A DNA stretch of 64,000 nucleotides from an uncultured bacterium (lineage in GTDB: Bacteria > Eisenbacteria > RBG-16-71-46 > CAIMUX01 > WJJG01), in NCBI GenBank assembly GCA_964654025.1, contig CAZZIF010000002.1, forward strand, positions 883-64,882, read 5' to 3'. This document shows, piece by piece, positions 3,179-63,968 of the stretch. Made by a program: the position numbers and the translations under genes. The notes below the pieces were generated by a model. The model was not told the origin of the DNA. It worked only from the letters and a program-made list of their open reading frames with translations, and ran no database searches. Numbering within the stretch: the stretch's first letter is position 1; every line of letters starts with the position of its first letter.

Positions 3179-3266
3179 GGGGAGCCTCCTAGGTGAGGTT
3201 TCGGCTGCTGGGCGGTCTCTCCCCAACGCAAATGCGCGTGCGCAGGTGAAGCCGCCCGCAGCCCCG

Positions 3267-3410
3267 TACGCCGGCATGCCGCTGCATGCGGCTGCGTACG
3301 CCGGCATGCGGCTGCGTGCAGCGGCGTGTGGCGGTCTACGGCGGCGTGCAGCGGCGTGTGGTGGCCTACGGCGGTGTGTGGCGGTCTACGGCGGCGTGCA
3401 GCGGCGTGCG
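3267..3410. repeat. Tandem repeat array, ~30-bp unit (GTACGCCGGCATGCSGCTGCRTGCRGCKGC-like) x ~5 with internal 15-bp sub-repeat
   Basis: Direct reading of 3267-3410, immediately 5' of the ALDH start on the minus strand. Confidence 0.8.
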
Positions 3411-3751
3411 GCCAAGCTGCTAACGGCCGGAGGTGGTGTAGATTGAGCGGCGGGTTGCCGATGCATGGCGTAGGTGGTTCGCTCGAGCATCAGAAGGAGC
3501 TTTCCAGGCGAGTGATCGGCATTGCGGAGCCAGGTGCGCAGGGCGTACCCTTGTTCTCTTGCGCTGAAGTTCGAGCGATGCTCGGACACAGCGAGCGATG
3601 GAGCCGGCTTCCCGGGCGAGCGGTTCGGGCGACGCTGTCAGGATGGACGAAGATGGACAAAGATGGACGATGATCGATGATGATCGACGGAGCTTGGATG
3701 TGCCCAGGGAACCTGAGCTGAGCATAGAGAGCCCTATTAAGGAGTAGGTCG

Positions 3752-4705
3752 ATGGGATTCTTAGATCAGTTGTTTGGCAGAAAGAGTTCAGAGCCAGCGA
3801 AGCGGCCCATCATTCGGCCGACGGGTGTGGGGGCGCCGCATCCGAAGCCGCCGTTCGATGAACTCAATAACTACATCATCGTGATCCTCGATAGCTGCCG
3901 GTACGACTCCTTCATGGCAGCCAAGCCGAAGGTCATCACGAAGCTCGGCGAGGTCGAGCAACGCTGGAGCTACGCCTCCTGGACCGGTCCGTCCCACTAC
4001 AATCTGCTCATGGGATTGCTGCCGCATACCAGTCCGGCACACGTCTACGCATCCGACTACTACAAGGAAGATTTCTTGCGATTCAATGAGCGTCTTGGGG
4101 CCGCGGGAATCGAGTTCAGCAGCTTCGTGCCGCATCTGTTCTTTCCAACCTACCTGCGCAACACACTGGGCTACTTCACCCACGCGAAGGTGTCGCTCCC
4201 GGTGCTCAATCCCAAGACCGCTATCAACAAGGACTTCGACTCCTTCAAGTTGATGGACAAGCACAACGACATGAACGCGATGCTCGATGAGTTGACCTTC
4301 TCCACCGAGCGGCCGTCGTTCTACCTCCTGAATGTGGGTGAGACGCACTATCCATATGCCCGGCCCACCGAACCGAAGAACGAGTGGCCCCGCCTGAGTG
4401 GTGTTCACGGCGTCTTCAAGCATCTGGACGACGCGGTGATCGACGGTCAGCTCAAAGAAGACCAGAAGACCGAGCCGTTCTTCGATCAGGAGAAGCTCGA
4501 TATCCTTCGCGGCCGTCAGATCGATACGGTGCAGTACCTCGAAAGCGTTTTCGAGCGCCTCTACGACATGGTGCCGAAGAACACCTACATCACCGTGACC
4601 GCCGACCACGGCGAACTCTTTGGTGAGAAAGGCTACTTCGGACACGGCCCGATCCAGCACGACAAGGTGTTCGAGGTCCCGTTCTTGGAAGGGAAGATCC
4701 GTTAG
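3752..4705 (+). CDS. Alkaline-phosphatase-superfamily metalloenzyme (sulfatase/phosphodiesterase-like), cytoplasmic, function unknown
   Basis: AAGGAG RBS before the ATG at 3752. IIVILDSCRYDSF (metal-ligand Asp/Ser region) and TVTADHGELFGEKGYFGHG (AP-superfamily DHG motif). GC content is visibly lower (~55%) than neighbours. No signal peptide. Confidence 0.5.
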   Translation: MGFLDQLFGRKSSEPAKRPIIRPTGVGAPHPKPPFDELNNYIIVILDSCRYDSFMAAKPKVITKLGEVEQRWSYASWTGPSHYNLLMGLLPHTSPAHVYASDYYKEDFLRFNERLGAAGIEFSSFVPHLFFPTYLRNTLGYFTHAKVSLPVLNPKTAINKDFDSFKLMDKHNDMNAMLDELTFSTERPSFYLLNVGETHYPYARPTEPKNEWPRLSGVHGVFKHLDDAVIDGQLKEDQKTEPFFDQEKLDILRGRQIDTVQYLESVFERLYDMVPKNTYITVTADHGELFGEKGYFGHGPIQHDKVFEVPFLEGKIR

Positions 4706-4766
4706 AGAAGACAACGACTAGAGAAAGCACCGACTAGAGACGGCAACGGCTAGAGAAAGCAACGAC
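4703..4766. repeat. 16-bp tandem repeat x4 (TAGAGAARSCAMCGRC); first unit contains the TAG stop of the upstream gene
   Basis: Direct reading; units at 4703, 4719, 4735, 4751. Confidence 0.85.
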
Positions 4767-7666: not shown

Positions 7667-7935
7667 AACAGCACCTCTAGCAGTAAAAACGCATGCACCT
7701 GTAACACCTGAAGTACCTGAGGCATTTGAAGCACCAGAAGCATTCGCGGTTCACCCCGATCACGGGGCTTCCTCGGTGTCCCGGGTGCGACTGTGCCTAC
7801 GGGGCCCGATGCGCCGAAGACACGCTAGGACCGTAGTGGCCGGCGCGAGCGCGCGGCATAGGGGATGTCCCGGTGTGGTCGTGGGGACCACATCGCTGCC
7901 AGGTCTGGGGCGGAGCGTTCGCTATCGTCAGCATT

Positions 7936-8024
7936 CGGAGCCAGCCGGAGCCATCTGGGACCATCCGGAGCCATCCGGAGTCATCCGGAGTCATCCGGAG
8001 TCATTCAGAGTCATTCAGAGTACG
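7936..8024. repeat. 10-bp tandem repeat (GGAGYCATYC) x ~9
   Basis: Direct reading. Overlaps the 3' end/stop of the NlpC/P60 gene on the minus strand. Confidence 0.85.
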
Positions 8025-8518
8025 CGGCGAGCCATCCAGAAGACCTCGCGCCAATAGGGAGTGTCGATGTTGGAGATCGTGACCCCGCGTTGCCCGCTCG
8101 AATGCACGAACTCTCGTTGACCGAGGTAGATGCCTACGTGGCGACTGCCCGAGCGCCGCTTGAAGAAGACCAGATCGCCGGGAAGCAGATCCGGTCGACT
8201 GATCTTCATGCCGACCTCCACCTGTGTCTTGGTCGTCCGGGGCAGACGGCGGCCGAAGTGGTCGGCGAATACGCGCACCACCAGACCGGAGCAATCGACG
8301 CCACCGCGGCTCATCCCGCCCAAGCGGTAGGCTGTGCCCAGCCAGGGGACGACCGCCTCGCGGAGTTTCTTCTCGACCGCGCTGGCAGTTGCGGCGACCG
8401 CCGGATCACTGGCGGGGTGGCGGGGGGGCGGTGCGCTGGGTCCACAGCCGTTCATCAACAGGCCTCCTGACAAGGTCAAGGCCAGTATGAAGAGAAGTCG
8501 ACTTCGGGCTCGATTCAT
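8015..8518 (-). CDS. NlpC/P60 (C40) family cell-wall peptidase lipoprotein
   Basis: Lipoprotein signal (LLMNGCG). Conserved GTAYRLGG...GVDCSGLV catalytic-Cys motif and downstream His. Confidence 0.75.
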   Translation of the reverse strand: MNRARSRLLFILALTLSGGLLMNGCGPSAPPPRHPASDPAVAATASAVEKKLREAVVPWLGTAYRLGGMSRGGVDCSGLVVRVFADHFGRRLPRTTKTQVEVGMKISRPDLLPGDLVFFKRRSGSRHVGIYLGQREFVHSSGQRGVTISNIDTPYWREVFWMARRVL

Positions 8519-14783: not shown

Positions 14784-14944
14784 CGGGGCTCCTCGCTGAA
14801 TGTGTTCTTCCTCGTCCTTGAGTCACATGCAGCCATGATGCGAGACCAGCTCGAAGGTCTCCATCGGGAGCGCGCGGTTGCGGTGCTCAGGTGATCCCCG
14901 ACCACGCTTTTTCGAGGAATAGCCCCCGCTGGTCAGCAGCCAGT

Positions 14945-15036
14945 GAGGTTCGCGGTGGTGAGCAAGCGAGGTGCGCGGTGGTGAGCAAGCGAGGTGCGCG
15001 GTGGTGAGCCAGCGAAGGTTCCCGGTGGTGAACCGG
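14945..15036. repeat. 23-bp tandem repeat (GAGGTGCGCGGTGGTGAGCAAGC) x4
   Basis: Direct reading in the divergent intergenic region between 14783 (-) and 15189 (+). Confidence 0.85.
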
Positions 15037-16403: not shown

Positions 16404-16662
16404 GATGCGCATGGGTGAGCACATGGATGTGGAGTCTCAGAGCAGAATCTCAGACCATTGGACGGAACGATCTTCTTCTGGATGAGGGAATCCCTTGGTG
16501 CGGTATGGGGTCCAACCCGGATTGCGTTACCCGCGTGAGACGTGTGGAGTACCGCATCTCGAGGGGCACCACGCGCGCCCGAGCGCACGGGGATACCGCC
16601 AGGCAACCGGAGACCTGGCCGCGAGTGTAGGCATGCCGCGTCACGGAGGTCCTGTGTATTCA

Positions 16663-17640
16663 ATGATGAAGGAGACAATCGAGCTTGCGCGCCCACGGCA
16701 GGTCGCGGTCGTGGGCGCCACGGGACCGACGGGCCGGCACCTCGTGGAGCATGTCCGCAAACGTGGCCACGCCGTGCTCGCGATCTCGCGCTCGGAGGGG
16801 AACCTGAAGCGTTGCTTTGGCGGCAGGAACGTCCGCACGGCCGTTTCGGACGCCGCCGACCGCTCGTCTCTAGGCCAGACGGTGGCAGGATCGGACATCG
16901 TCGTCGATTGCATCGGATTGCCACCGGATCGCATGCAAGACCACCCGAAGATCGCCCAGGCCATCGCCGAGGCGGCCGACGACGTCGGCGCCCGGGTGGT
17001 GCAGATCTCGAGCTTCTGGTCATTCCTGCCGCTCGAGCGCGAGCCTCTCGACGAGACCCATCCGCGCGTGGGGGGCAGCGAGTATTCGATGGCGCGCAGG
17101 GAAGCCGAAGATGTCATGCTCGAAGCCAAAGCGGCGGTTGTTCACCTTCCGGACTTCTTCGGGCCCTGGGTGCACTCGAGCACGTTGCAGCGAGCCCTGG
17201 AGGAAGCTGTCCAAGGCAAGCCGATCATGTGCATCGGGCCGAGCGAGAACCACCGGGAGTACATCTTCGTCCCCGATGCCATGAAACTGGTCACCGATCT
17301 CATGGAACATGACGAAGCCTATGGTGAATCATGGGTATTCCCGGGGTCAGGACCGCTGAGTATGAAAGATGCCGCCCGCATCGCGGGACGGCATCTGGGG
17401 CGCGATCTGAAGGTCCGCGCCGCACCCGGATGGCTGCTCAAGGCGATGAGTCCGTTCTCACAGGACTTGAAGGCCTTCCGTCCCATGCTTGATGACTACG
17501 TCCGGCCCATCACCTACAGCGGGCAGCGTCTTCGTGATCTACTCGGTGCGGTGGAGATCACACCCTACGACGAAGCGATCCGCATCACCCTGGACTGGCT
17601 GCGTGACCGGGAGACGGCCGACGAAGTCGCTGCGAGCTAG
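16663..17640 (+). CDS. NAD(P)-dependent epimerase/dehydratase (atypical SDR / NmrA-like)
   Basis: VAVVGATGPTGRHLV Rossmann motif. The ATG pair at 16663 with GGAGG upstream supports a shorter start than the ORF track. Confidence 0.7.
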   Translation: MMKETIELARPRQVAVVGATGPTGRHLVEHVRKRGHAVLAISRSEGNLKRCFGGRNVRTAVSDAADRSSLGQTVAGSDIVVDCIGLPPDRMQDHPKIAQAIAEAADDVGARVVQISSFWSFLPLEREPLDETHPRVGGSEYSMARREAEDVMLEAKAAVVHLPDFFGPWVHSSTLQRALEEAVQGKPIMCIGPSENHREYIFVPDAMKLVTDLMEHDEAYGESWVFPGSGPLSMKDAARIAGRHLGRDLKVRAAPGWLLKAMSPFSQDLKAFRPMLDDYVRPITYSGQRLRDLLGAVEITPYDEAIRITLDWLRDRETADEVAAS

Positions 17641-17695
17641 TTCCGGCATGCCGAGATGCGGCGCGATGCGACCCGGCCCGACGTCCACTGCTGGG

Positions 17696-18253
17696 TCACG
17701 ACTGCGTCACCCGTACGGTCGTGGCCTGGGGACCCTCCAGGGCCTGTGCTTCGGCGAACGCTACCGGTGTGCCAATGCTCAGCGCATCGAACTCTTCGTT
17801 GAGCACGCTATTGCGATGGAAGTAGATCTCCCGGCCGTCGACGGTCTTGATGAATCCGTAGTCCTTGTCCGGATAGATCTGGCTCACGAGGGCTTGGGCC
17901 TGCTGCTCCGGATGGACCTTGATCTCGCCCCGCTGCCGCTCGACGATCTCCGTGACCCGCCGGCGCGCCGTATCGAATGCCCGCCGAATGACGGTCTCGA
18001 CGGGTTCGTGCATCTGTCCCTGGCCGGGCTCGCGCGATACGACGATCTCGTGCCCCGGCGGGATTTGCATGTTCACACGGACGCGGTAGGAAGAACCGGC
18101 GTCCTGGTGGGCTTGCGGCTTTTCGATGGCCACCCTGCAACTGGTGAGGTAGTCACAAACCTGCTCGAGCTTGCCGACTTTCTCCTCGACGAGCGCGACC
18201 AGATGCGGATCTCGGCGGAGATTGCGGAAGCTGAGTTCCAGCGGGACCTGCAT
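17696..18253 (-). CDS. Ribosome-hibernation-factor-like (HPF/RaiA/YfiA) domain fused to a C-terminal cold-shock (CspA-like) domain
   Basis: AGGAGG RBS 6 nt upstream of the ATG at 18253. The N-terminus MQVPLELSFRNLRRDPHLVALVEEKVGKLEQ resembles the sigma-54 modulation/HPF fold. The C-terminus DYGFIKTVDGREIYFHRNSVLNEEFDALSIGTPVAFAEAQALEGPQATTV resembles the CSD RNP motifs. The ORF-track N-terminal extension runs into a repeat array. Confidence 0.55.
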   Translation of the reverse strand: MQVPLELSFRNLRRDPHLVALVEEKVGKLEQVCDYLTSCRVAIEKPQAHQDAGSSYRVRVNMQIPPGHEIVVSREPGQGQMHEPVETVIRRAFDTARRRVTEIVERQRGEIKVHPEQQAQALVSQIYPDKDYGFIKTVDGREIYFHRNSVLNEEFDALSIGTPVAFAEAQALEGPQATTVRVTQS

Positions 18254-18264
18254 GCGTGCCTCCT

Positions 18265-18360
18265 GTGGATTGTGGCTGTGGATTCGGGCAGTGGATTCGG
18301 GCGGTGGGTTCGGGTCCTCGGTTCGGGTCCTCGGTTCGGGTCGTGGGATCGCGTCGTGGG
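18265..18360. repeat. Degenerate 13-bp tandem repeat (GTGGRTTCGGGYS) x ~8 in the shared 5' region of the HPF-CSD gene and treZ
   Basis: Direct reading. Confidence 0.8.
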
Positions 18361-18740
18361 TTCGCACCGCGGGCCGAGGCCGGCAACGCGCTGGGCGGAT
18401 CGACCTGGCCGCCCTATCATTTCCCACCGCCAGAACATGACCTCAAGATAGCCTTGCCCATCGCGCGGCTCCCACGGGAGAAATCCCATCCGGAGCTTCC
18501 GGAGAATCCTTACTTTGGCCATTGGCGGGGTCGAAGCTCGTCCAGGTGACTAGGACGTTCGAAGGAACTGTCGTACGATGGAGCCGGCGACGGGCTGGAC
18601 GGCGACGGGCTGGACGACGCGGGTTGGTCGCCGGGTTGGTCGACGAGCGGTTCGACGATTTGTTCGGCGTGCTGGCTGGTAGGCCGGTCGATGCCAACAG
18701 AGACAGGGACAGGCCGAGGCTGAGAATAGGAAGACCAAGG

Positions 18741-20597
18741 ATGGTGGAAACGCAACACAAGCACAGTTCGCCTTTTGGTGCGGAGATTCGTCCTGACGGC
18801 CAGGTTCGGTTTCGACTGTGGGCACCCGATCTCACCTCCGTAACGCTCGTTCTCGAGCCGCGCGGCCGAGAGACCATCAGGCTTCCGCTCGACTCCGCTG
18901 GCGAGGGGTGGTTCGAGGTCCTGAGTTCGGTGGTGGGTGCCGGCGATCGCTATCGCTTTCGCCTCCCAGACGGGCTGGAGGTTCCCGACCCGGCGTCTCG
19001 ATGGCAGCCCGAGGGAGTCCATGGACCGAGCGAGATCGTCGATCCCCTGGCCTACCGATGGACCGCCACGAACTGGCAAGGTCGCCCTTGGGAAGAGCTC
19101 GTTCTGTACGAACTGCACGTCGGGACCTTCACGCCGCAAGGCACCTTCGCCGCCGCGGCCGAGCAGCTACCCCGGCTCGCCGATCTTGGCGTGACCGGAA
19201 TCGAGCTGATGCCGGTGGCCGCGTTTCCGGGAAAGCGGAACTGGGGCTACGATGGAGTGCAACCGTTCGCTCCGGCCGATTCCTACGGAACTCCCGACGA
19301 CCTCAAGGCCCTGGTCGACGCCATCCATGCACACGGCATGGCCGCCATGCTCGACGTGGTCTACAACCACTTCGGACCCGAGGGCAATTATCTGCACTGC
19401 TACGCGAAGCCCTTCTTCACGTCGCGCTATGAGACCCCGTGGGGAGCGGCCATCGACTTCGAAGGTCCGCAGAGCGAAGTGGTGCGGCAATTCTTCATCC
19501 AGAACGCTCTCTTCTGGCTGGAGGAGTACCGGTTCGATGGCCTGCGGCTCGATGCAGTCCACGCCATCACGGACCACTCCCGGCCGGACATCCTCGAGGA
19601 ACTGGCCGCGCGAGTCCATCGCGGGCCCGGCGCCGAGCGGGAGGTGCATCTGGTTCTGGAGAACGACAACAACGAGTCGCACTATCTGAAGCGCGCGGCC
19701 GACGGCCGGCCCCTCCAGTTCGTAGCGCAGTGGAACGACGACATCCACCACGCCTTTCACTGTCTGTTGACCAGCGAGAAGGAGGGATACTACCAGGACT
19801 ACGCCTCCGATCCCCTCAGCCATCTGGGACGTTGTCTTAGCGAGGGGTTTGCGTATCAGGGCGAGGCCTCTGCCTTCCGAGACGGCGAGACGCGCGGTGA
19901 GAGAAGCGGGCATCTCCCGGCCTCGGCATTCGTCTCCTTCGTACAGAACCATGACCAGATCGGCAATCGAGTCTTCGGCGAACGGCTGACGACCTTGTGT
20001 GAGCCGCGAGCGCTTCAGGCAGCCACGGTCGTTCTTCTGCTGGCCCCATCGGTGCCGCTGATTTTCATGGGAGAGGAGATTGGTTGCCGCCGGCCGTTCC
20101 TGTTCTTCTCCGACTTCGGCCCCGACCTGGCCGGCCGCGTGACGGAGGGCCGTCGCCGTGAGTTCGCCTCGTTTCCAGAGTTCGCTGATCCGGAAGCGGT
20201 CGGGCGGATTCCCGACCCCCAAGATCCGGCCGTGTTCGGGCAGGTAGTGATCGATTGGCGGCAATCCGGGCGGGGAGTGGCGGCGCACTGGGAAGCGTTC
20301 TACAAACACTATCTGGAGATCCGTCGACGCGACCTGGTGCCGCGGCTGCCGAACATGCCGGGCGACCGATCCGAGTGGCGCCGACTCGGTGACCGGGCGC
20401 TGGAAGCCAAGTGGACGCTCGGCGATGGGAGCCGACTGTGCCTGCTCGCCAATCTGGGCGAAGAGGCCGTCGATGGCCAGCAGCCCTCGGGCAGGTTGAT
20501 CGCCGACTTCCACCTGCAATCGGCTCCCAGCGAATCGACCGTCCGGCTCCCCGGATGGTCGGTCGGTGTGTATCTGGACGAGCGGGAGACACCGTAG
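18741..20597 (+). CDS. treZ: Malto-oligosyltrehalose trehalohydrolase (GH13)
   Basis: N-terminal FGAEIRPDGQVRFRLWAPDLTSVTLVL (TreZ CBM48 start). GH13 catalytic regions GYDGV, GLRLDAVHAI, ENHDQ. The ATG at 18741 is preferred over the ORF-track start. Confidence 0.85.
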   Translation: MVETQHKHSSPFGAEIRPDGQVRFRLWAPDLTSVTLVLEPRGRETIRLPLDSAGEGWFEVLSSVVGAGDRYRFRLPDGLEVPDPASRWQPEGVHGPSEIVDPLAYRWTATNWQGRPWEELVLYELHVGTFTPQGTFAAAAEQLPRLADLGVTGIELMPVAAFPGKRNWGYDGVQPFAPADSYGTPDDLKALVDAIHAHGMAAMLDVVYNHFGPEGNYLHCYAKPFFTSRYETPWGAAIDFEGPQSEVVRQFFIQNALFWLEEYRFDGLRLDAVHAITDHSRPDILEELAARVHRGPGAEREVHLVLENDNNESHYLKRAADGRPLQFVAQWNDDIHHAFHCLLTSEKEGYYQDYASDPLSHLGRCLSEGFAYQGEASAFRDGETRGERSGHLPASAFVSFVQNHDQIGNRVFGERLTTLCEPRALQAATVVLLLAPSVPLIFMGEEIGCRRPFLFFSDFGPDLAGRVTEGRRREFASFPEFADPEAVGRIPDPQDPAVFGQVVIDWRQSGRGVAAHWEAFYKHYLEIRRRDLVPRLPNMPGDRSEWRRLGDRALEAKWTLGDGSRLCLLANLGEEAVDGQQPSGRLIADFHLQSAPSESTVRLPGWSVGVYLDERETP

Positions 20598-20663
20598 ACG
20601 AGTGGGAAACATCGCCGACGAGCGGGAGACGGAGACACCGTAGACGAGCGGGAAGCACCGTGG
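20578..20663. repeat. ~20-bp tandem repeat (GACGAGCGGGAGACACCGTA) x4 spanning the treZ stop codon and the treZ-malQ/treY spacer
   Basis: Direct reading. Confidence 0.85.
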
Positions 20664-20675
20664 AGAGGAGCGCAC

Positions 20676-23600
20676 ATGGACCGAGAAGCACTCGCGGCAC
20701 TGGCCGATCGGGCCGGGATCGAGCCGGAGTACTGGGACATCCGTGGTCAAAGGCACCAGATCACCGATGGAACGAAGCTCACCTTGTTGCGGGCCATGGG
20801 GCTTCCGGTCGCTGATGAGGGTGACCTGCGCCGGGTGCTGACGGAATGGGATGATGCGATCTGGCTTCGCGGGATCCAACCGGTGCTCGTCAAGACGGGC
20901 GGTGATGCCCCGATCGAGGTGGATCTGCACTGGCCGGTGGAAGCGCTGGAGCAGACCGTCGTCTGGACATTACAAGAGGAAGGCGGCATCCGCCATCAGG
21001 ATCGATTCGTACCGGCCGGGTTGGAAATGGTCGCGGAACGCACGATCCGTGGACGACCGTTCGTCCGATTGAGGCTACGCATCCACGCCAGCACGGCACT
21101 TGGGTATCACACCCTGTGGATTGAACCCGAGGAAGCGTCTGAAGCGTCCAATGCAACGTACGACGATCCTCCGGCAGGCGCATCAGAACGGCCTCCCAAG
21201 AGCGCTGCCGAGAGTGTCCAGAGCATGCGGCTCATCGTCGCCCCGACAGCTTGTTACATTCCCCCGGGCATGAGCGACGAGGATCGGGTGTGGGGACCGG
21301 CGGTGCAGCTCTATGCCCTGCGATCGGTGCGCAACTGGGGTGCCGGCGATTTCAGCGACCTGACCGTCCTTCTCGAACTCGCGGCCGAGCAAGGGGCTGG
21401 AATGGTCGGTCTCAATCCCCTACACGCCCTCTTCCCTCACGATCACACCCGGCGTAGTCCGTATAGTCCCTCCAGCCGGCGTTTCCTGAATACATTCTAC
21501 ATCGACGTCGAAGCGGTACCGGAGTTCAGGGAGTGCGAAGCCGCTCGCCGTCTGGTCGGCGAGCCTCGCTTCCAGGCACAGCTGCTCTCCCTTCGCGAGG
21601 CCGAGTTCGTGGACTTCGCGGCGGTGTCGAGCGCGAAGCGTTCCGTCTTGGAACGTCTCTACGAGGAGTTTCGCAACCGGCACGTGGCCAACAGCACCGC
21701 CCGTGCGGAAGCCTTCCGCGCCTATCAAGTCCGCGGGGGACACCGTCTCTGGCAGCACGCGGTCTATGAGGCCTTGTCCGAACACCTTCACGCGAAGGAT
21801 CCACACCTCTGGGGGTGGCCGGTATGGCCCGAGGCATACCGTGACCCGGACGGCGCCGCGGTACTGGCCTTCGCCCAGGAAAATCACGCCCGCGTGGAGT
21901 TCTTCCAGTACCTGCAGTGGGTCGCCCAGGAGCAGTTCGCCGGCGCGGGACGGCGATCCTTGGATTTGGGACTGAAGGTCGGGTTGTATGAGGATCTCGC
22001 GATCGGGGTCGACATCGGTGGGCTCGATACCTGGTTGGATCAGAGCCTGTATGCGCTCGATGCCCGCATCGGGGCCCCCGCGGATGACTTCAACCCGGAA
22101 GGGCAGGAGTGGGGTTTGCCGCCGATGATCCCGCATCGGCTGCGTGCGACCGGGTACCAGCCGTTCATCGAGGTGCTGCGCGCCAACATGCAGCACGGCG
22201 GCGTGCTCCGAATCGATCACGTCATGGGTTTGATGCGCCTGTTCTGGGTTCCGTCGGGCGAGAAGCCGACTCACGGCGCCTACGTGCGCTACGCGCTATC
22301 CGACCTGCTCGCGGTCCTGGCGCTGGAAAGCCAACGGAACCACTGCATGGTGGTGGGGGAGGACCTCGGCACCGTCGATGATCGCGTGCGAGATGCGATG
22401 GGGCCGGCGCAGATCCACGCCTACCGGGTCTTCTACTTTACGAAGGGCGAAGACGGGGCCTTCCGGCTTCCGGAGAATTATCCTTCTCAGGCGCTGGTCA
22501 CGGTGAGTACCCATGACTTGCCCACCCTTCCCGGCTACTGGGAGGGCCGCGACATCCATGTGCGCGGGGAGCTGGATCTCTATCCGGACCCGGCCACCGA
22601 AGAGGAACAGGTTCTCACGCGCGGGCAGGACCGCACCCGCATCATGGTGTCCTTGTCGAAAGCGGGATTGTTGCCCAAGGGCACCGGACTCGACGCCGCG
22701 CTTCTGCCGGACCTGCCCGACAGCTTGATCCAGGCCATCCATGCCTATCTGGCGCGAACACCGTCTCGCATGATGACCTTCCAGTTCGAGGATGTGATGG
22801 GTCAGCTCGACCAGGTGAACTTCCCCGGAACCGTCGACGAGCATCCGAACTGGTGCCGGAAGCTCCCGATCACCCTCGAGGCGATTGGTGAGGACCCACG
22901 CTGGACGGGGCTCACCGAGGTCCTCCGGCGGGAGAGGGGCATGGGACGCGTGGCCGCGGACCGGGAAGATGAGGTCCAGCGAACGGGACCGGATGCCCTG
23001 GTCCCCCGCGCGACCTACCGTTTGCAAATGAACCGGCGCTTCACCTTCGACGATGCCGCGCGCCTGGTTCCGTACTTGAAGCGGCTCGGCATTAGCCACT
23101 GCTATCTGTCGCCGGTGTTGAAAGCGCGCCCGGGCAGTCTGCACGGCTACGACATCATCGACCACAACGAACTCAATCCCGAGATCGGCGGACGGGGGGC
23201 CTTCGATCATCTGGTGCACGTGCTTCATCAGCATCAGATGGGCCTGATCCTGGACATGGTGCCGAACCACATGGGCATCGGCTGGGACAATCCATGGTGG
23301 TACAACGTGCTCGAGAACGGACCCGCCTCACCCTACGCCGGTTTCTTCGACATCGACTGGCAGCCGGTCAAGCCGGAACTGCATGGCAAGGTGCTGCTGC
23401 CCGTTCTGGAAGATCACTATGGGCTGGTCTTGGAGCGGGGCCTCCTGAAGGTGATTTTCGACGCCGGAACCGGTGAGTTCACCCTGGGCTACCATGACCA
23501 TCGATTTCCGCTGGATCCGCGAACCTATCCCACCCTCTTGACCCATGGGATCGAGCGATTGCAGCAGGAGCTGGGAGCCGAAGATCCGAACCTTCACGAG

Positions 23601-25988
23601 CTGCAGACGCTCATCGATGCTCTCACCAACCTGCCGGACCGACATGAGACCGAGAGCGAGAAGATTGCCGTCCGCCTGCGCGATCAAGAGGTCCTCAAGC
23701 GTCACCTCGTTCGAATCTGCGCGGTGAATGAAAGCATTCTCCGATTCGTGCATGCGGTGGTGGAGGTCTTCAACGGGCGGAAAGGGCACCCGGGCAGCTT
23801 CGACCGGTTGGACGCGTTGCTGGCCCACCAAGCCTATCGCCTGGCGTTCTGGCGCGTCGCTTCTGACGAGATCAACTACCGGCGCTTCTTCGATATCAAC
23901 GATCTGGCCGGGCTGTCGATGGACAATCCGGAGGTTTTCGACCGAACCCACCGGCTGGTGATGGAATGGATCAGCCAGGGGAAGGTCCAGGGACTCCGCA
24001 TCGATCACCCCGATGGACTGCGGGATCCGTTGGACTACTGTCGCCGGCTACAGGAGGCGGCCCGTGTGGCGCGCGGACCCCGCGGAGGACGGAGAACCAT
24101 AAACCCATCCACCGGGTGTGACAATCCTTCGTGCGAGCCCGAAGCGGTCTACATTGCCCTCGAGAAGATCCTGATCGGGGACGAGCAGTTGCCCCAGGAC
24201 TGGCCCGTGCATGGAACCACCGGGTACGAGTACGCGTCTGCGGCGACCGGAATGCTGATCGATCAGAGTGCCGAAGCAGCTCTGGAGCGCATCTACAATC
24301 GGTTCGTTGGCCGCAAGACCGAGTTCGCCGAGTTGCTCTACCGCTGCAAGAAGATGATCGTTCACGGGCCTCTGGCCAGTGAACTCAACGTCCTTGCCAC
24401 GGATCTGAACCGGATCGCAGAGTCCGATCGTCACACGCGCGATTTCACGCTCAGCCGCATCAAGGAGGCGTTGGCGGAAGTCGTCGCCTGCTTCCCCGTT
24501 TACCGAACCTATGTCACCGGACGGGGCGTGAGCCCAGAGGATCGCCGGTACGTCGACCAGGCCATCGCCGAGGCCCGGATGCGTTCTCAAGCGATCGATG
24601 TCAGTATCTACGACTTCATCGCCCGCATGCTGCTGCTCGACTTCACCGAGCGCACACCCGAAAGCGTGCGATCTTCGGCGACGCGCTTTGCGATGAGTTT
24701 TCAGCAGTACACGGGACCGGTCATGGCCAAGGGCATGGAGGACACCGCATTCTACGTCTTCTACCGGCTTCTCTCGCTCAATGATGTGGGGAACGATCCC
24801 ACACGGTTCGGGCGGTCGGTGGCCGAATTCCACGAGCGCAACCGGGATCGGGCTCAAGATCGGCCCCATGCCCTCTTGAGCAACTCGACACACGATCATA
24901 AGCGCAGTGCGGACGTGCGGGCGCGAATCAATGTCCTCTCGGAAGTCCCCGACCGCTGGCAAGCGTGCGTGTCTGGCTGGAATCGAATGAACCGCAGTCA
25001 CAAGCGCCGAGTGGCGGGCCTGTTCGCGCCGACGAAGAATGACGAGTACGCCTTCTATCAGACGCTGATCGGCGTCCATCCCGCGGGCGCCCTCACCGGA
25101 GATCAGATCGACACATTCCGTGAACGTATCGAGCGCACCATGATCAAGTCCGTGCGTGAGGCGAAGGTGCACAGCAGCTGGATCAATGTCAATCCGGCCT
25201 ATGAGGATGCAACGTTATCCTTCGTCCGCGCAGTTCTGGCCGATGATCGCGAGGACGGCTTCCTGGCTGACTTCAGAAGGTTCCAAAGCAAGGTTGCGTT
25301 TTTCGGTATGCTGAATGGTCTGGCCCTCACGTTGCTCCAGCTCACTGTCCCCGGCGTGCCGGACATCTATCAAGGAGACGAACTGTGGCGCTACTCCCTG
25401 GTCGATCCCGACAATCGGCGCCCGGTGGACTTCGCGTTGCGCCAGCGGATGCTGCGAGAACTCGACCAGCAGCAACGCGAGCCGTCCCTTTCGCAAGACG
25501 AATCAAGTGGCGATTCGGAAGCCTCGGAAGCCGATGCCGCATCCGTCCCGGCACTCGCGCGAACGCAGGATCTCTTCTCGTCTTTGTCGGACGGACGGGC
25601 CAAACTATACGTGCTCAGCCGGGTGTTGAGGCTACGCGCTCAATTGCCGGAGCTGTTCAGCTCGAGCGAGTATGAGGCGCTCGCGGTTCGGGGGAGCCTG
25701 GCCGATCACGCCTGCGCCTATCTTCGGCGTCATGGAGAGCGGGCGATGATCGTCATTGTGCCGCGTCTGTGCGCCAAGCTCCTGGACTTCACACCGGGAC
25801 GGATGCCGGTCGGCGAAAAGGTGTGGGGTGATACGTGGATCGAGCTGGCGAGGCCTGAGGCCGGGCGCGTCCTTCGCCACGTCCTGACCCGTGAGACGCT
25901 GGAACCGGGTCAGGGTGACCAGTCGGGGAGGATTCCGATGGGTGAGGCCCTCCGGTCGATTCCGGTCGGCCTCTTCTTGTGCGAATAG
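20676..25988 (+). CDS. treY: Bifunctional 4-alpha-glucanotransferase (GH77, MalQ-like N-terminal half) / malto-oligosyltrehalose synthase (TreY, C-terminal half), 1770 aa
   Basis: Continuous ORF with a GGAGAGGAG RBS. Residues 1-~760 carry the MalQ N-terminus ALADRAGIEPEYWDIRGQ and the GH77 core. Residues ~770-1770 begin ATYRLQMNRRFTFDDAARLVPYLKRLGISHCYLSPVLKARPGSLHGYDIIDH, the TreY start and GH13. Confidence 0.85.
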   Translation: MDREALAALADRAGIEPEYWDIRGQRHQITDGTKLTLLRAMGLPVADEGDLRRVLTEWDDAIWLRGIQPVLVKTGGDAPIEVDLHWPVEALEQTVVWTLQEEGGIRHQDRFVPAGLEMVAERTIRGRPFVRLRLRIHASTALGYHTLWIEPEEASEASNATYDDPPAGASERPPKSAAESVQSMRLIVAPTACYIPPGMSDEDRVWGPAVQLYALRSVRNWGAGDFSDLTVLLELAAEQGAGMVGLNPLHALFPHDHTRRSPYSPSSRRFLNTFYIDVEAVPEFRECEAARRLVGEPRFQAQLLSLREAEFVDFAAVSSAKRSVLERLYEEFRNRHVANSTARAEAFRAYQVRGGHRLWQHAVYEALSEHLHAKDPHLWGWPVWPEAYRDPDGAAVLAFAQENHARVEFFQYLQWVAQEQFAGAGRRSLDLGLKVGLYEDLAIGVDIGGLDTWLDQSLYALDARIGAPADDFNPEGQEWGLPPMIPHRLRATGYQPFIEVLRANMQHGGVLRIDHVMGLMRLFWVPSGEKPTHGAYVRYALSDLLAVLALESQRNHCMVVGEDLGTVDDRVRDAMGPAQIHAYRVFYFTKGEDGAFRLPENYPSQALVTVSTHDLPTLPGYWEGRDIHVRGELDLYPDPATEEEQVLTRGQDRTRIMVSLSKAGLLPKGTGLDAALLPDLPDSLIQAIHAYLARTPSRMMTFQFEDVMGQLDQVNFPGTVDEHPNWCRKLPITLEAIGEDPRWTGLTEVLRRERGMGRVAADREDEVQRTGPDALVPRATYRLQMNRRFTFDDAARLVPYLKRLGISHCYLSPVLKARPGSLHGYDIIDHNELNPEIGGRGAFDHLVHVLHQHQMGLILDMVPNHMGIGWDNPWWYNVLENGPASPYAGFFDIDWQPVKPELHGKVLLPVLEDHYGLVLERGLLKVIFDAGTGEFTLGYHDHRFPLDPRTYPTLLTHGIERLQQELGAEDPNLHELQTLIDALTNLPDRHETESEKIAVRLRDQEVLKRHLVRICAVNESILRFVHAVVEVFNGRKGHPGSFDRLDALLAHQAYRLAFWRVASDEINYRRFFDINDLAGLSMDNPEVFDRTHRLVMEWISQGKVQGLRIDHPDGLRDPLDYCRRLQEAARVARGPRGGRRTINPSTGCDNPSCEPEAVYIALEKILIGDEQLPQDWPVHGTTGYEYASAATGMLIDQSAEAALERIYNRFVGRKTEFAELLYRCKKMIVHGPLASELNVLATDLNRIAESDRHTRDFTLSRIKEALAEVVACFPVYRTYVTGRGVSPEDRRYVDQAIAEARMRSQAIDVSIYDFIARMLLLDFTERTPESVRSSATRFAMSFQQYTGPVMAKGMEDTAFYVFYRLLSLNDVGNDPTRFGRSVAEFHERNRDRAQDRPHALLSNSTHDHKRSADVRARINVLSEVPDRWQACVSGWNRMNRSHKRRVAGLFAPTKNDEYAFYQTLIGVHPAGALTGDQIDTFRERIERTMIKSVREAKVHSSWINVNPAYEDATLSFVRAVLADDREDGFLADFRRFQSKVAFFGMLNGLALTLLQLTVPGVPDIYQGDELWRYSLVDPDNRRPVDFALRQRMLRELDQQQREPSLSQDESSGDSEASEADAASVPALARTQDLFSSLSDGRAKLYVLSRVLRLRAQLPELFSSSEYEALAVRGSLADHACAYLRRHGERAMIVIVPRLCAKLLDFTPGRMPVGEKVWGDTWIELARPEAGRVLRHVLTRETLEPGQGDQSGRIPMGEALRSIPVGLFLCE

Positions 25989-29177: not shown

Positions 29178-29327
29178 GGCACGGGTTCCAATGCACGGGT
29201 TCCAATGCACGGGTTCCAATGCACGGGTTCCAAAGTACGGCGTCGAGGAGGGGTATCGCAGGGTGCATGTCGGCCGACATGGGCTCCGTTCCCGATTCGA
29301 CATCCGTACATCTAGAGGGAGAAGGGG

Positions 29328-34539: not shown

Positions 34540-34877
34540 ATCGTCCTCCCTTGCGATGGATGGCGTACGATTGCGATCCATTCAGCCAATGTCTTGGGAC
34601 CGTAGATACCGATGGGCTCACGTTCCATCGGGCGATCGGTCGCACGCGCTTGGAGGCAATGGCCCTTGGGCGACTGGGGATGTTTCCGAGAGTCCGCCTG
34701 GAACAGGCACGATGGGGTGGTCTCCCCACGACGCATTGGCGGAAGAACCCACGCCGCAACGGCAGTCGACCGGGTGGGGTGGCGACGCGTCGGGTGATAA
34801 ACAGATTCTAGACAATCGTTGGCGGCCACGGACAACGAACGATGGAGAAGCAAATCCGCCCACCTGGAGGTTGACCA

Positions 34878-36068
34878 ATGACCATCATGGATCCAATTCC
34901 GGACCGAGAGGGTGTTCTCGATCTATTGCGCGACTCGGGCTGGCCGCGCCTGTCGATCTACATGCCGACCGGCCGACCCGGGTCGGAAGCGCAGAAGAAC
35001 CAGATTCGGTTCAAGAACCGCATCCAGGAGGCCGCTGGCGGCCTCATTGCCGGCGGCATGAGAACTCGCCAAGTCCAAGACTTCCTGGCGCCGATCCGCG
35101 CCATGATCGACGATCAGCGATTCTGGCGGTATCAGGCCGACGGTCTGTGCATGTTTCAAAGCCCGAACTCACTGCGCTACTTCCGTCTGCCGCGAAGAGT
35201 GCCCGAGTTGACCGTGGTTTCGAAGAGCTACCACATCAAGCCTCTCCTCCCGCTCTGGAGCGATCAGATGCGTTGCTACCTCCTGTCGGTGGACCTTCGC
35301 GAGGTCGATCTGTTCGAGGTCGATGCTCTTGGATTGCGGCAGGTCCAATCGAACGACGATCTGCCCGAGGGCATCGAGGAGTTCCGACCCGATGAAGGCG
35401 ACAATGGGGGCCTGCAATGGCACACCGGAGGGGAGGGTGAGCGTGCCACGGCGGGCACGCCCGGCGAAACCGGCCCCATCTACCATGGTCATGGTCGCGG
35501 CAAGGATGCCTCACTCGAGAAGGAACGCATCTTGGCCTACCTGCGAGAGGTCGAAGACGTGGTCACCCGGCGGGTGGCCGGCTCCGAGGTCCCGCTCATT
35601 CTAGCGGGCGTGGAGTATCTTCTCCCTCTATATCGAGAGGCGAATCACTATCCGCACGTGCTGCCGGCGGATCTGCCGGTCAATACCCGCGAGATGAGCG
35701 AGGACGATCTTCATCAGGAAGTCTTGAGGCTCATGCAACCACTTCAAGAGCAGCGGCGTGATGAGCTCCTCGAGCGCTACCGGACGATGCGACCACGGCA
35801 GCGAACCTCTCGTGGCATCAAGGATGTCCTGGTGGCCGCCACAGCCGGCAGGGTGGATACGCTCTGGGCTCAGGGAGAGGCCTACTGCTGGGGACGATAC
35901 GATCCCGCGACCACCCAGGTAGACATCCACGCACGTCAGCATCCATACGATGAGGACCTGGTCAACACGGCGGCGGTTGAGGCGCTCAAGACCCAGGCGC
36001 AGGTGCTATTGGCCGAACCGGAGCAGATGCCGGAAGAGGGCAAGGTGGCAGCTCTGCTGCGCTATTAG
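34878..36068 (+). CDS. Bacterial archaeo-eukaryotic release-factor-like (baeRF/Rv2629-like) family protein, putative
   Basis: N-terminal LDLLRDSGWPRLSIYMPT, then LCMFQSPNSLRYFRLP and CYLLSVDLREVDLFEV. These resemble the conserved N-terminal blocks of eRF1-like bacterial families (M. tuberculosis Rv2629 type). The call rests on pattern recognition only. Confidence 0.45.
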   Translation: MTIMDPIPDREGVLDLLRDSGWPRLSIYMPTGRPGSEAQKNQIRFKNRIQEAAGGLIAGGMRTRQVQDFLAPIRAMIDDQRFWRYQADGLCMFQSPNSLRYFRLPRRVPELTVVSKSYHIKPLLPLWSDQMRCYLLSVDLREVDLFEVDALGLRQVQSNDDLPEGIEEFRPDEGDNGGLQWHTGGEGERATAGTPGETGPIYHGHGRGKDASLEKERILAYLREVEDVVTRRVAGSEVPLILAGVEYLLPLYREANHYPHVLPADLPVNTREMSEDDLHQEVLRLMQPLQEQRRDELLERYRTMRPRQRTSRGIKDVLVAATAGRVDTLWAQGEAYCWGRYDPATTQVDIHARQHPYDEDLVNTAAVEALKTQAQVLLAEPEQMPEEGKVAALLRY

Positions 36069-49283: not shown

Positions 49284-49295
49284 GATGGGACCCCC

Positions 49296-49379
49296 TTCAT
49301 GGGCGCCTTGATGGGTGCCTTCATGGGCGCCTTCATGGACGCCTCCATGGGCGCCTCCATGGGCGCCTCCATGCGCGGC
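49296..49379. repeat. 12-bp tandem repeat (TTCATGGGCGCC) x7; in frame with the downstream (minus-strand) otsB-like ORF it would encode (H/A)xGA His-rich repeats
   Basis: Direct reading. Confidence 0.85.
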
Positions 49380-51142: not shown

Positions 51143-52741
51143 TCATCCACGTTTCTTCAGGATCGACCGGGCCGCGTCCAAGAACGCCTGGCGGTCCTCA
51201 TCCAAGAGCTTCTCCCCGTCCCGGATGCGTTGACTCTGGTCTGCGAGCTTCCCGGGAACCGTGTCTTGGATCTCGCCCAGGACCTCACCCACCTGCTCGG
51301 TGGGCACCGAGTCGAAGAGCCCCTCGTTGAGGGACAGTAAGACGGCGATCTGCTCCGGGACGGTGCGTGGGTGATACTGTGGTTGCTTGAGCACTTCACG
51401 CACCCGGCGGCCTCGCGCCAACGTGGCCTTGGTTTCCTCGTCGAGTCGTGTTCCGAACCGGGCGAAGGACTCCAGCTCTTCGAACTGCGAATACGCCAGG
51501 CGGAGATCTCCCGCAACGGCCCGGTACGCGTCCAGCTGGGCCTTGCCGCCCACGCGTGAGACCGACTTGCCGACATCGACCGCCGGCAAGACGCCTCGTT
51601 GCTGTAGGGTGGGCGAGAGGTAGATCTGCCCATCAGTGATCGAGATCAGGTTCGTGGGGATGTAGGCCGAGATGTTCTGCGCTTGCGTCTCGATGATCGG
51701 CAGGGCCGTTACCGAACCACCGCCCTCCCGATCGCGGAGATGGGTGGCACGTTCGAGCAATCGCGCGTGGACGTAGAAGATATCACCGGGATAGGCTTCA
51801 CGAGCCGGCGGTCGACGCAGAAGCAGGGAGAGTTCCCGGTAGGCCCGGGCGTGCCGGGTGAGATCGTCGAAGACCACCAGTGCATCTTGGCCTTGATCCA
51901 TGTAGTACTCAGCCATGCTCATCGCCGCGTAGGGCGCCACGTACTTGAGACCGGGGGGCTCGTCGCCACCTGCGAAGACGACCGTGCAGGTGTCGAACGC
52001 TCCGTGGGATCGCAAATCGTCGACGACTCGGGCCACGGCCGTGCCGCGCAGGCCGATGGCGCAGTAGATGCATCGAACCTGGGTATCCCGCTGATTGAGG
52101 ATCGCATCGATCGCGATGGCGGTCTTGCCGGTGCGGCGATCCCCGAGAATCAGCTCCCGTTGTCCACGGCCAACCGGAATGAGCGCATCCACGACCCTCA
52201 GTCCAGTCTGCAGCGGAACCGAGACGGGCGCGCGATCGAGGATCTCCGGCGCCGATCGTTCGATTGGACGCCGCTCCTCGGTCTCCACGGGCCCCTGGCG
52301 GTCGAGCGGCCGCCCGGTTGGATCGATGACGCGCCCCAACAGCTTATCGCCCACGGGTACATCCACAACACGGCCCGTCCGCCGAACGATCGATCGCGAC
52401 CCAATCTCGTCCCAGGCATCCAGGAGGGCAATGCCGACCCGGTTGGGCTTCAGCGTGAGGGCCATGCCGCGGAAGCCGCCCTCGAAATGAAGCAGCTCCT
52501 GGGAGCCCACGTGGGGAAGCCCGTCGGCATCGGCGACGCCACGTCCCACCTGCAGAACGGTGCCGACCTCCTCGATGTCCAGCCGGGCAGGCTGGTCCTG
52601 CAGGGTTTGCTCTACCGCGGAGGCCACATCTTCAAGCACGCCTTCGAGCACGCCTTCGAGCGCGCCTTCAAGCGTGCCTTCAGGCACGGCTTCAGGCACG
52701 TCTGCAAGACCGTGCCGGTTGGTGCTGTTTGGGGCCGTCAT
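51143..52741 (-). CDS. atpA: N-ATPase (F-type) alpha subunit; N-terminus carries an in-frame 12-bp x7 tandem repeat encoding (VPEA/TLEG/VLEG) repeats
   Basis: P-loop [15 protein letters not shown]. Repeat at 52631-52714 inside the CDS. Confidence 0.85.
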
Positions 52742-63884: not shown

Positions 63885-63968
63885 GAATCTTGCCTCGCTC
63901 GGGCGGAATCTTGCCTCGCTCGGGCGGAATCTCGGCTCGCTCGGGCGGAATCTCGCCTCGCTCGGGCG
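63885..63968. repeat. 21-bp tandem repeat (GAATCTYGSCTCGCTCGGGCG) x4
   Basis: Direct reading near the window end. Confidence 0.85.

Follow-up and report, generated by a model that had tools for sequence, protein, structure and literature searches.

The 64-kb stretch of DNA analysed here, referred to as the window, comes from an uncultured high-GC bacterium for which very few related genomes have been sequenced. In a search with its LigA the nearest named homologues, at about 60% identity, belong to Planctomycetota, Brocadiia, Hydrogenedentota and Lentisphaerae. On its minus strand, at 17696..18253, lies a gene of 185 codons plus stop in which a ribosome-hibernation domain of the HPF/RaiA type is joined to a cold-shock domain. 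Comparison of the predicted protein with its homologues supports its assignment to HPFcold, a known and structurally characterised class of hibernation factors. A tandem array of eight 13-nt units stands directly before the Shine-Dalgarno (SD) sequence of the gene. We consider it probable that the gene encodes a hibernation factor of the HPFcold class and that the array arose by slippage-type duplication, as one of many fast-evolving arrays in the intergenic DNA of the lineage.

Results

The protein belongs to the HPFcold class

The best match of the protein in the PDB, as determined with phmmer, is chain 9 of entry 9T0Z, named 'Ribosome hibernation promoting factor' (183 aa, E=4.9e-34). The alignment extends over query residues 1-180 and chain residues 6-178, far above the matches to single-domain cold-shock proteins (Csp), and the identity of 39% over 173 positions is evenly distributed over the linker and the two domains it joins. 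Chain 9 is the Coxiella burnetii protein CBU_0020, 'HPFcold', also found in entry 9TZE (Nat Commun 2026;17:7049, PMC13392368; bioRxiv 10.1101/2025.11.08.686982). The S30AE domain of CBU_0020 occupies the tRNA cleft and decoding site of the 30S subunit, where it obstructs the A site and the path of the mRNA, and its cold-shock domain clamps the anti-Shine-Dalgarno (aSD) 3' end of 16S rRNA by binding ACCUC (PMC13392368). The conservation of HPFcold clusters on the aSD-contacting residues, and the authors propose that 70S ribosomes are shielded from RNases as monomers, without the formation of 100S dimers (PMC13392368). The class of HPF-Csp fusions has also been identified independently, in the hibernation-factor survey of Chan et al. 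(bioRxiv 10.1101/2025.11.04.686544), in which HPF cores fused to Csp, SigE or CBS replace the dimerisation domain of long HPF. The window protein shares with these chimeric HPFs a core that is free of the dimerisation domain and is fused to a Csp stress domain; theirs is a comparative survey, to which the present locus adds one more lineage.

All of the best 120 homologues (184-215 aa) match the query over its full length, and both Pfam domains are recorded in 119 of them. They come from many phyla, their sources being named for Zixibacteria, KSB1, Calditrichia, Latescibacterota, Omnitrophica, Eisenbacteria, cyanobacteria, Desulfobacteraceae and others, and one metagenome scan yielded at least 580 further HPFcold loci. 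Thus, the conservation of the fusion in relatives, a check proposed in a first-pass annotation made from the sequence alone, is evident, and the description of the fusion as unusual in that annotation does not hold: the HPF-cold-shock fusion is a widespread conserved family that is neither new nor odd. At NCBI the homologues are labelled 'HPF/RaiA family ribosome-associated protein', and no dedicated NCBIfam model for HPFcold scored above its cut-off. An exact look-up recorded no identical copy of the window's protein.

The window protein and CBU_0020 are both about 185 aa long and have in common the N-terminal S30AE domain, a short K-x-H-P linker with the motif KTHPE, and a cold-shock domain with RNP-like aromatic motifs. 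They differ by a 5-residue loop insertion (QGQMH) in the N-domain of the window protein and in their hosts, an uncultured, deep-branching, high-GC bacterium on the one hand and a gammaproteobacterial pathogen on the other. The ribosome-bound structure is that of CBU_0020, whereas the window protein is known from its sequence and a model.

Domain organisation and predicted fold

Both domains are encoded in a single uninterrupted open reading frame (ORF) of 185 codons with no internal stop. The S30AE / sigma-54-modulation (HPF/RaiA) domain comprises residues 6-107 (17933..18238, minus strand) and is matched by PF02482 Ribosomal_S30AE with 38.0 bits against a cut-off of 23.7 (E=2.9e-9). The cold-shock domain comprises residues 122-182 (17708..17890, minus strand) with an RNP1-like YGFI and an RNP2-like IYFH motif, and is matched by PF00313 CSD with 36.1 bits against a cut-off of 27 (E=5.9e-9). 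The proposal that an HPF/RaiA domain and a cold-shock domain are fused in one ORF is therefore borne out by both of the profile searches suggested for it, and the motif quoted in its favour, YGFIKTVDGREIYFH, is found in the translation. The domains are connected by residues 108-121 (17891..17932, minus strand), which carry the motif K-x-H-P-x-Q.

In an alignment of 26 diverse HPFcold sequences (A2) the linker residues K112, H114, P115 and Q117 and the cold-shock domain residues G133, F134, Y144 and F145 are invariant in 26/26 sequences, and the RNP-like G-F and Y-F-H are kept. Two cysteines of the N-domain located six residues apart, C33 and C39 (window ~18135-18157), are likewise invariant in the 26 sequences; the position of C33 is occupied by Ser in the solved Coxiella protein, and a redox or metal role of the pair is conceivable.

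A structural model was calculated with AlphaFold2 (AF2) from the same 26 sequences and has a mean pLDDT (predicted local distance difference test) of 83.6. Only linker residues 111-119 are disordered, with pLDDT values below 50 that indicate flexibility. The N-domain adopts a beta-alpha-beta-beta-beta-alpha fold and matches ribosome-bound RaiA, HPF and pY chains with template modelling (TM) scores of 0.73-0.88 relative to the target and root-mean-square deviations (rmsd) of 1.8-2.8 A. The C-domain forms a five-strand barrel, which superimposes on CspB, CspA and CspC with TM scores (target) of ~0.8-0.85 and an rmsd of ~1.9 A. As the Foldseek PDB search (library entries to April 2026) did not list 9T0Z among its matches, the structures were compared domain by domain with other chains. 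With the short HPF/RaiA proteins (YfiA, pY) and long HPF the window protein thus shares the fold and the predicted binding site of the N-domain (TM up to 0.88), but it has neither the C-terminal tail of RaiA nor the dimerisation domain of long HPF, and carries a cold-shock domain instead. We also considered and rejected a 100S-forming long HPF: the sole C-terminal domain found is the cold-shock domain, and TIGR00741 (yfiA) reaches 12.9 bits against a cut-off of 40.9.

Proposed function

The domain identity, the single ORF, the full-length homology, the predicted folds and the conserved RNA-binding motifs are observed; that the window protein would bind the ribosome is inferred by homology to CBU_0020. 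In the proposed mechanism the S30AE domain would occupy the decoding centre of the 30S subunit and block tRNA and mRNA. The flexible K-x-H-P-x-Q linker would lead into the cold-shock domain, which is expected to bind the single-stranded aSD 3' end of 16S rRNA and to shield it from RNases. The outcome would be an inactive, protected 70S monomer, for which the dimerisation domain of long HPF would be dispensable.

The C-terminal half has in common with CspA, CspB and CspE the five-stranded oligonucleotide/oligosaccharide-binding (OB) barrel and the RNP1/RNP2-like motifs, here as part of a larger protein. In an alternative reading the main activity of the protein would be not hibernation but that of an RNA chaperone or antiterminator of the Csp type, or of another cold-shock-domain effector. 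The cold-shock domain does bear a weak resemblance to the NCBIfam models of CspE, CspA and the retron Se72 effector, and C. burnetii is reported to have lost its dedicated Csp proteins (PMC13392368), so that a dual role is conceivable there. However, the NCBIfam scores all remain far under their cut-offs (CspE, 27.1 bits against 120; CspA, 20.6 against 130; the retron Se72 effector NF038236, 29 against 82), the S30AE domain is intact and conserved, and the homologue has been seen on the ribosome with both of its domains engaged. We therefore regard a primarily Csp-like role as very improbable. A single-domain Csp of ~70 aa was rejected on the same scores and on the length of 185 aa. A retron Se72 effector was rejected as well: no reverse transcriptase or retron features adjoin the gene, the neighbours being an epimerase gene and treZ, and the window contains no Rfam match.

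Translation start and ribosome-binding site

The coding sequence begins with MQVPLELSF at the ATG at 18253. It is preceded by the SD sequence AGGAGG at 18259..18264 (minus strand) and a 5-nt spacer, CACGC. The first-pass annotation had correctly recognised AGGAGG; the distance it gave, 6 nt, errs by no more than one, the actual spacing being 5 nt. For comparison we used relatives at 96% (L001, L002), 86% (L003, L004) and 68% (L005). The SD sequence reads AGGAGG in L001 and GGGAGG in L003.

The frame is open from an upstream GTG at 18427 through to the stop codon, and initiation there would give a protein of 243 aa with the repeats translated as an N-terminal extension. Several observations speak against it. 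The 13-nt period shifts the frame at each unit, a strong AGGAGG lies 5 nt ahead of the ATG at 18253, and the genes called in the relatives encode 184-185 aa. In addition, the aligned M-x-[VILF]-P-L is the N-terminus in 23 of the 25 other aligned sequences, the exceptions being P0021 with one additional residue and P0006 with an 18-residue extension. Because of the out-of-frame period, the start of the homologues at the position of MQVPL and the gene lengths in the relatives, the GTG at 18427 is hardly credible as the true start.

A rapidly changing 13-nt array abuts the SD sequence

The array consists of 8 x 13 nt at 18265..18368 (minus strand) and directly abuts AGGAGG, as seen with Tandem Repeats Finder (TRF) at period 13 and by listing the units in register. 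In the mRNA sense the units read, 5' to 3', GGTGCGAACCCAC, GACGCGATCCCAC, GACCCGAACCGAG (twice), GACCCGAACCCAC, CGCCCGAATCCAC, TGCCCGAATCCAC and AGCCACAATCCAC. TRF reports period 13 over 18263-18364 with scores of 69 and 90, 85-87% matches and no indels. As 13 is not a multiple of 3, the array is not a coding repeat. Its A+C content in the mRNA sense is 73%, and it lies ~370 nt from the start of the divergent treZ gene, inside the 487-bp HPFcold/treZ intergenic region. The presence of about eight degenerate 13-bp repeats in the 5' region shared with treZ had been pointed out before and is confirmed in full.

Elsewhere in the window CGAAYCCAC, the motif of the unit, shows no enrichment, with 45 matches against 42 expected. 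This excludes the unit as a dispersed regulatory motif, and the signal is therefore the cluster itself.

In an alignment of the intergenic region of the window and its relatives (A1), the close relatives have kept the SD-proximal unit (AGCCACAATCCAC, directly before AGGAGG), with CCACAAYCCAC in common, and differ in the sequence and number of the distal units. In the window eight units of the CGAAYCCAC type precede HPFcold. In L001 and L002 their place is taken by 3.3 units of ACCCACGATCCGA (58 nt at period 26), and in L003 and L004 by 3.7 units of GCCCACAGCAACG, with a separate 18-nt x 5.8 array further upstream. No array is found before HPFcold in L005. Since the proximal unit is kept and the distal ones are variable, the array was most likely seeded when the 13 nt that immediately precede the SD sequence were duplicated by a slippage-type event, and would then have undergone rapid turnover.

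Among 80 other HPFcold loci from the metagenome a clear upstream array is present only in L046, with weak ones in L035 and L047. Upstream repeats are thus not a trait of the HPFcold family, 79 of the 80 loci being without a strong array. The L046 array (L046:1418-1488) is built from about eight copies of a C-rich 9-nt unit, TCTCCCCCA, and ends ~13 nt before the HPFcold start codon. The L046 contig is rich in 7-9-nt repeats, which also occur at 1353-1397, 2321-2374 and 2432-2530 and resemble the cyanobacterial heptamer repeats.

Short tandem arrays are abundant in the lineage

With a TRF score of at least 40 as threshold, the window contains 29 arrays, compared with 0-4 (about 2) in locally shuffled copies of it. 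Their units are unrelated and have periods of 9-30. About 20 of the 29 are located between ORFs, at an ORF end or no more than ~150 nt from one, 5' as well as 3' of genes and also in convergent gaps; examples are found at 3258-3412, 4703-4766, 7932-8040, 14938-15031, 29179-29240, 49294-49377 and 52630-52708. An excess of arrays is also seen in L001-L004, L091 and L093. Counting only strong arrays (at least 3.5 copies and a score of at least 60), we obtained densities per 10 kb of 2.2 for the window, 0.9 for the 96% relatives, 2.0 for the 86% relatives, 0 for the 68-70% relative and 0.24 for the 80 other HPFcold loci, so that the density in the window is roughly ten times that of the other loci. 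In the relatives with called genes 5 of the 6 intergenic gaps around HPFcold hold an array, and arrays at orthologous positions switch their unit between relatives.

By the strict criterion of Subirana and Messeguer (2019), which we re-implemented for this analysis, the 64 kb contain 3 loci, corresponding to ~47 per Mb. Only 18 of 119 reference bacteria exceed 4 per Mb (Subirana and Messeguer 2019, PMC6749651). The arrays resemble the Burkholderia, cyanobacterial heptamer and Methanosarcina repeats described there in being short-period, non-coding and intergenic. They differ in that nearly each array has a unit of its own (9-30 nt), in contrast to one genome-wide heptamer or hexamer family. 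The HPFcold array is thus best explained as one case of a lineage-wide abundance of fast-evolving arrays.

Two further arrays illustrate this variability. At L001:6550-6623 an 11-nt x 6.6 array of AGTAGTGACCA runs over the stop codon of HPFcold and occupies the space as far as the convergent epimerase gene. The corresponding gap in the window is 55 nt long and holds no array, and arrays are therefore gained or lost between very close relatives. A 21-nt unit, GAATCTCGCCTCGCTCGGGCG, is present in four copies at window 63885-63968 and in three copies at L091:15837-15899. In L091 it lies inside a called gene for a MalK-like ABC ATPase, so that it would be an in-frame coding repeat of 7 aa with differing copy number.

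The leader and possible roles of the array

Between this array and the arrays on the treZ side of the intergenic region, a non-repetitive block at 18441..18580 (columns ~200-350 of A1) is conserved in the 96% and 86% relatives. Its conservation points to a candidate HPFcold promoter element, TATCTT, at 18450..18445 (minus strand), which follows the pattern TAYNNT and appears as TATGCT and TATGGT in relatives, and to a candidate treZ promoter, CTAGGAC-N17-TACGAT, at 18550-18579 (plus strand). The block may accordingly hold the divergent HPFcold and treZ promoters, and the HPFcold mRNA would then probably have an A/C-rich, unstructured 5' untranslated region (UTR) of ~185 nt that includes the whole array. 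The minimum free energy of this putative leader is -68.1 compared with a shuffle mean of -73.95 (z=+1.3), and the fold is thus no more stable than that of shuffled sequence. An unstructured A/C-rich stretch ahead of a strong SD sequence should permit efficient initiation.

Rfam gave no match in the window and none at E<=1 in 17600-18800, so that both threshold modes came back empty. A thermoregulator of the cspA 5' UTR type or a curated leader RNA was rejected on this basis and on the fold z of +1.3. Mimicry of the aSD sequence by the repeats was likewise rejected as unsupported: the leader is free of CCUCC and ACCUC, and its only additional SD-like elements are two GAGG within units.

Two local features of this region are recorded here. 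A 9-bp long-range pairing of GGCGGUGGG (18431-18423, minus strand) with CCCACCGCC (18308-18300, minus strand) would join the putative leader start to one repeat unit and is the only helix kept in the centroid fold; it is maintained through G-U in L001, and its 5' arm is missing in L003. Within the conserved block, at 18460-18525, the palindromic hexamer TCCGGA occurs twice (TCCGGAAGCTCCGGA), together with a direct repeat, GGATTCTCC ... GGATTTCTCC, which is partly kept in the 86% relative as GGAATTTCC ... GGCATTTCCCC. This site could be an operator common to the divergent HPFcold and treZ promoters.

Several points weigh against our interpretation of the protein and its array. The function is transferred from a 39%-identical homologue of a distant phylum. 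The putative leader is deduced from the conserved TAYNNT element, and a sigma-70 consensus scan of the region returned 0 sites. Another contig of the 96% relative, 22 kb long, has 12 intergenic gaps, of which only 3 contain an array, so that arrays are common, not universal. Finally, the HPFcold array persists at its exact position in the 86-96% relatives despite the turnover of its sequence, and a C-rich array also precedes the start codon in L046, an unrelated HPFcold locus. The last two observations leave room for a functional role.

Such a role could be that of a dedicated cis-regulatory element, in which the repeats offer C/A-rich sites to the protein's own cold-shock domain for autoregulation or, in a variant, recruit another Csp or S1 to enhance translation or sense stress, much as cspA is controlled by its long 5' UTR. 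Apart from its kept position and the 9-nt x 8 array directly upstream of HPFcold in L046, this is favoured by the array itself, which abuts the SD sequence, has an A+C content of 73% and is predicted to be unstructured, that is, the type of RNA bound by cold-shock domains. On the other hand, the unit changes from the CGAAYCCAC type in the window to ACCCACGATCCGA in L001 and GCCCACAGCAACG in L003, and none of the units contains CCUCC or ACCUC, the target of the solved cold-shock domain. Many other genes in the window are likewise bordered by arrays of this kind with unrelated units, also at their 3' ends, 79 of the 80 other HPFcold loci lack such an array, and the L046 contig is full of repeats in any case. 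Together with the lack of an Rfam element of the cspA type, this makes a dedicated cis-regulatory function unlikely.

Tandem arrays near promoters or ribosome-binding sites are classical substrates of phase variation. The array might accordingly be a contingency locus, in which slippage in the number of units tunes the dose of hibernation factor between cells or strains. The copy number indeed varies from 8 in the window to 3.3 in L001 and L002 and 3.7 in L003 and L004. However, contigs encoding identical proteins carry identical arrays (L001 = L002, L003 = L004), and no length polymorphism was seen within a population. The degeneracy of the units (85-87% matches) slows slippage, and the array lies neither between -35 and -10 elements nor inside an ORF, where changes in length switch expression. 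A contingency locus is thus quite improbable, and the same degree of doubt attaches to the related view that the array is a selected, length-tunable, unstructured C/A-rich leader which sets the level of the hibernation factor, possibly via its own cold-shock domain. Slippage-type duplication followed by turnover remains our preferred explanation of the array.

Gene neighbourhood

The divergent neighbour treZ (18741..20597, plus strand; start MVETQHKH) encodes a malto-oligosyltrehalose trehalohydrolase-like protein, with CBM_48, Alpha-amylase and DUF3459 domains assigned from the L001 orthologue. A second, short pair of arrays detected by TRF (period 15 x 2.9 and period 12 x 1.9) lies on the treZ side of the intergenic region at 18585..18642, where the equivalent region of L001 has an array with a different unit. 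On the other side, HPFcold faces a convergent NAD-dependent epimerase/NmrA-like gene (16495..17640, plus strand), identified in the ORF list and by the Pfam domains of the L001 and L003 orthologues. The 55-nt gap to this convergent gene and the divergent orientation of treZ suggest that HPFcold is monocistronic.

The 96% and 86% relatives share the divergent HPFcold/treZ order, which the 68% relative does not have. The position of a hibernation factor beside trehalose synthesis, both functions of dormancy or stress, is suggestive of co-regulation, but the arrangement is too narrowly conserved to argue from. Directly after treZ, at 20676-25988 (plus strand), a 1770-aa ORF combines a 4-alpha-glucanotransferase (MalQ_N, GH77) with a TreY-like alpha-amylase; this MalQ-TreY fusion is a single gene in the 96% and 86% relatives too. 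The treZ/malQ-treY junction carries a 20-nt x 4 array (20577-20661), the unit of which is identical in L001. Further downstream, at 34875-36068 (plus strand), a 397-aa protein matches baeRF family 3 and family 7 (E ~1e-33) and is a further translation-related stress or conflict protein in the window.

Discussion

The abundance of short arrays is the more unusual aspect of the window; it is peripheral to HPFcold and needs confirmation at the level of the whole genome. The arrays may be of interest for work on bacterial genome architecture and mutational mechanisms. If the array before HPFcold were a selected tunable leader after all, it would tie repeat instability to the control of dormancy.

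For the HPFcold family itself the locus leaves the picture unchanged, as the fusion is real but ordinary and structures were published in 2025-26. The assignment is of use for annotation, where NCBI naming stops at 'HPF/RaiA family'. The HPFcold class protects the 3' end of 16S rRNA without ribosome dimerisation, and the window adds one uncultured high-GC lineage to its already broad distribution.

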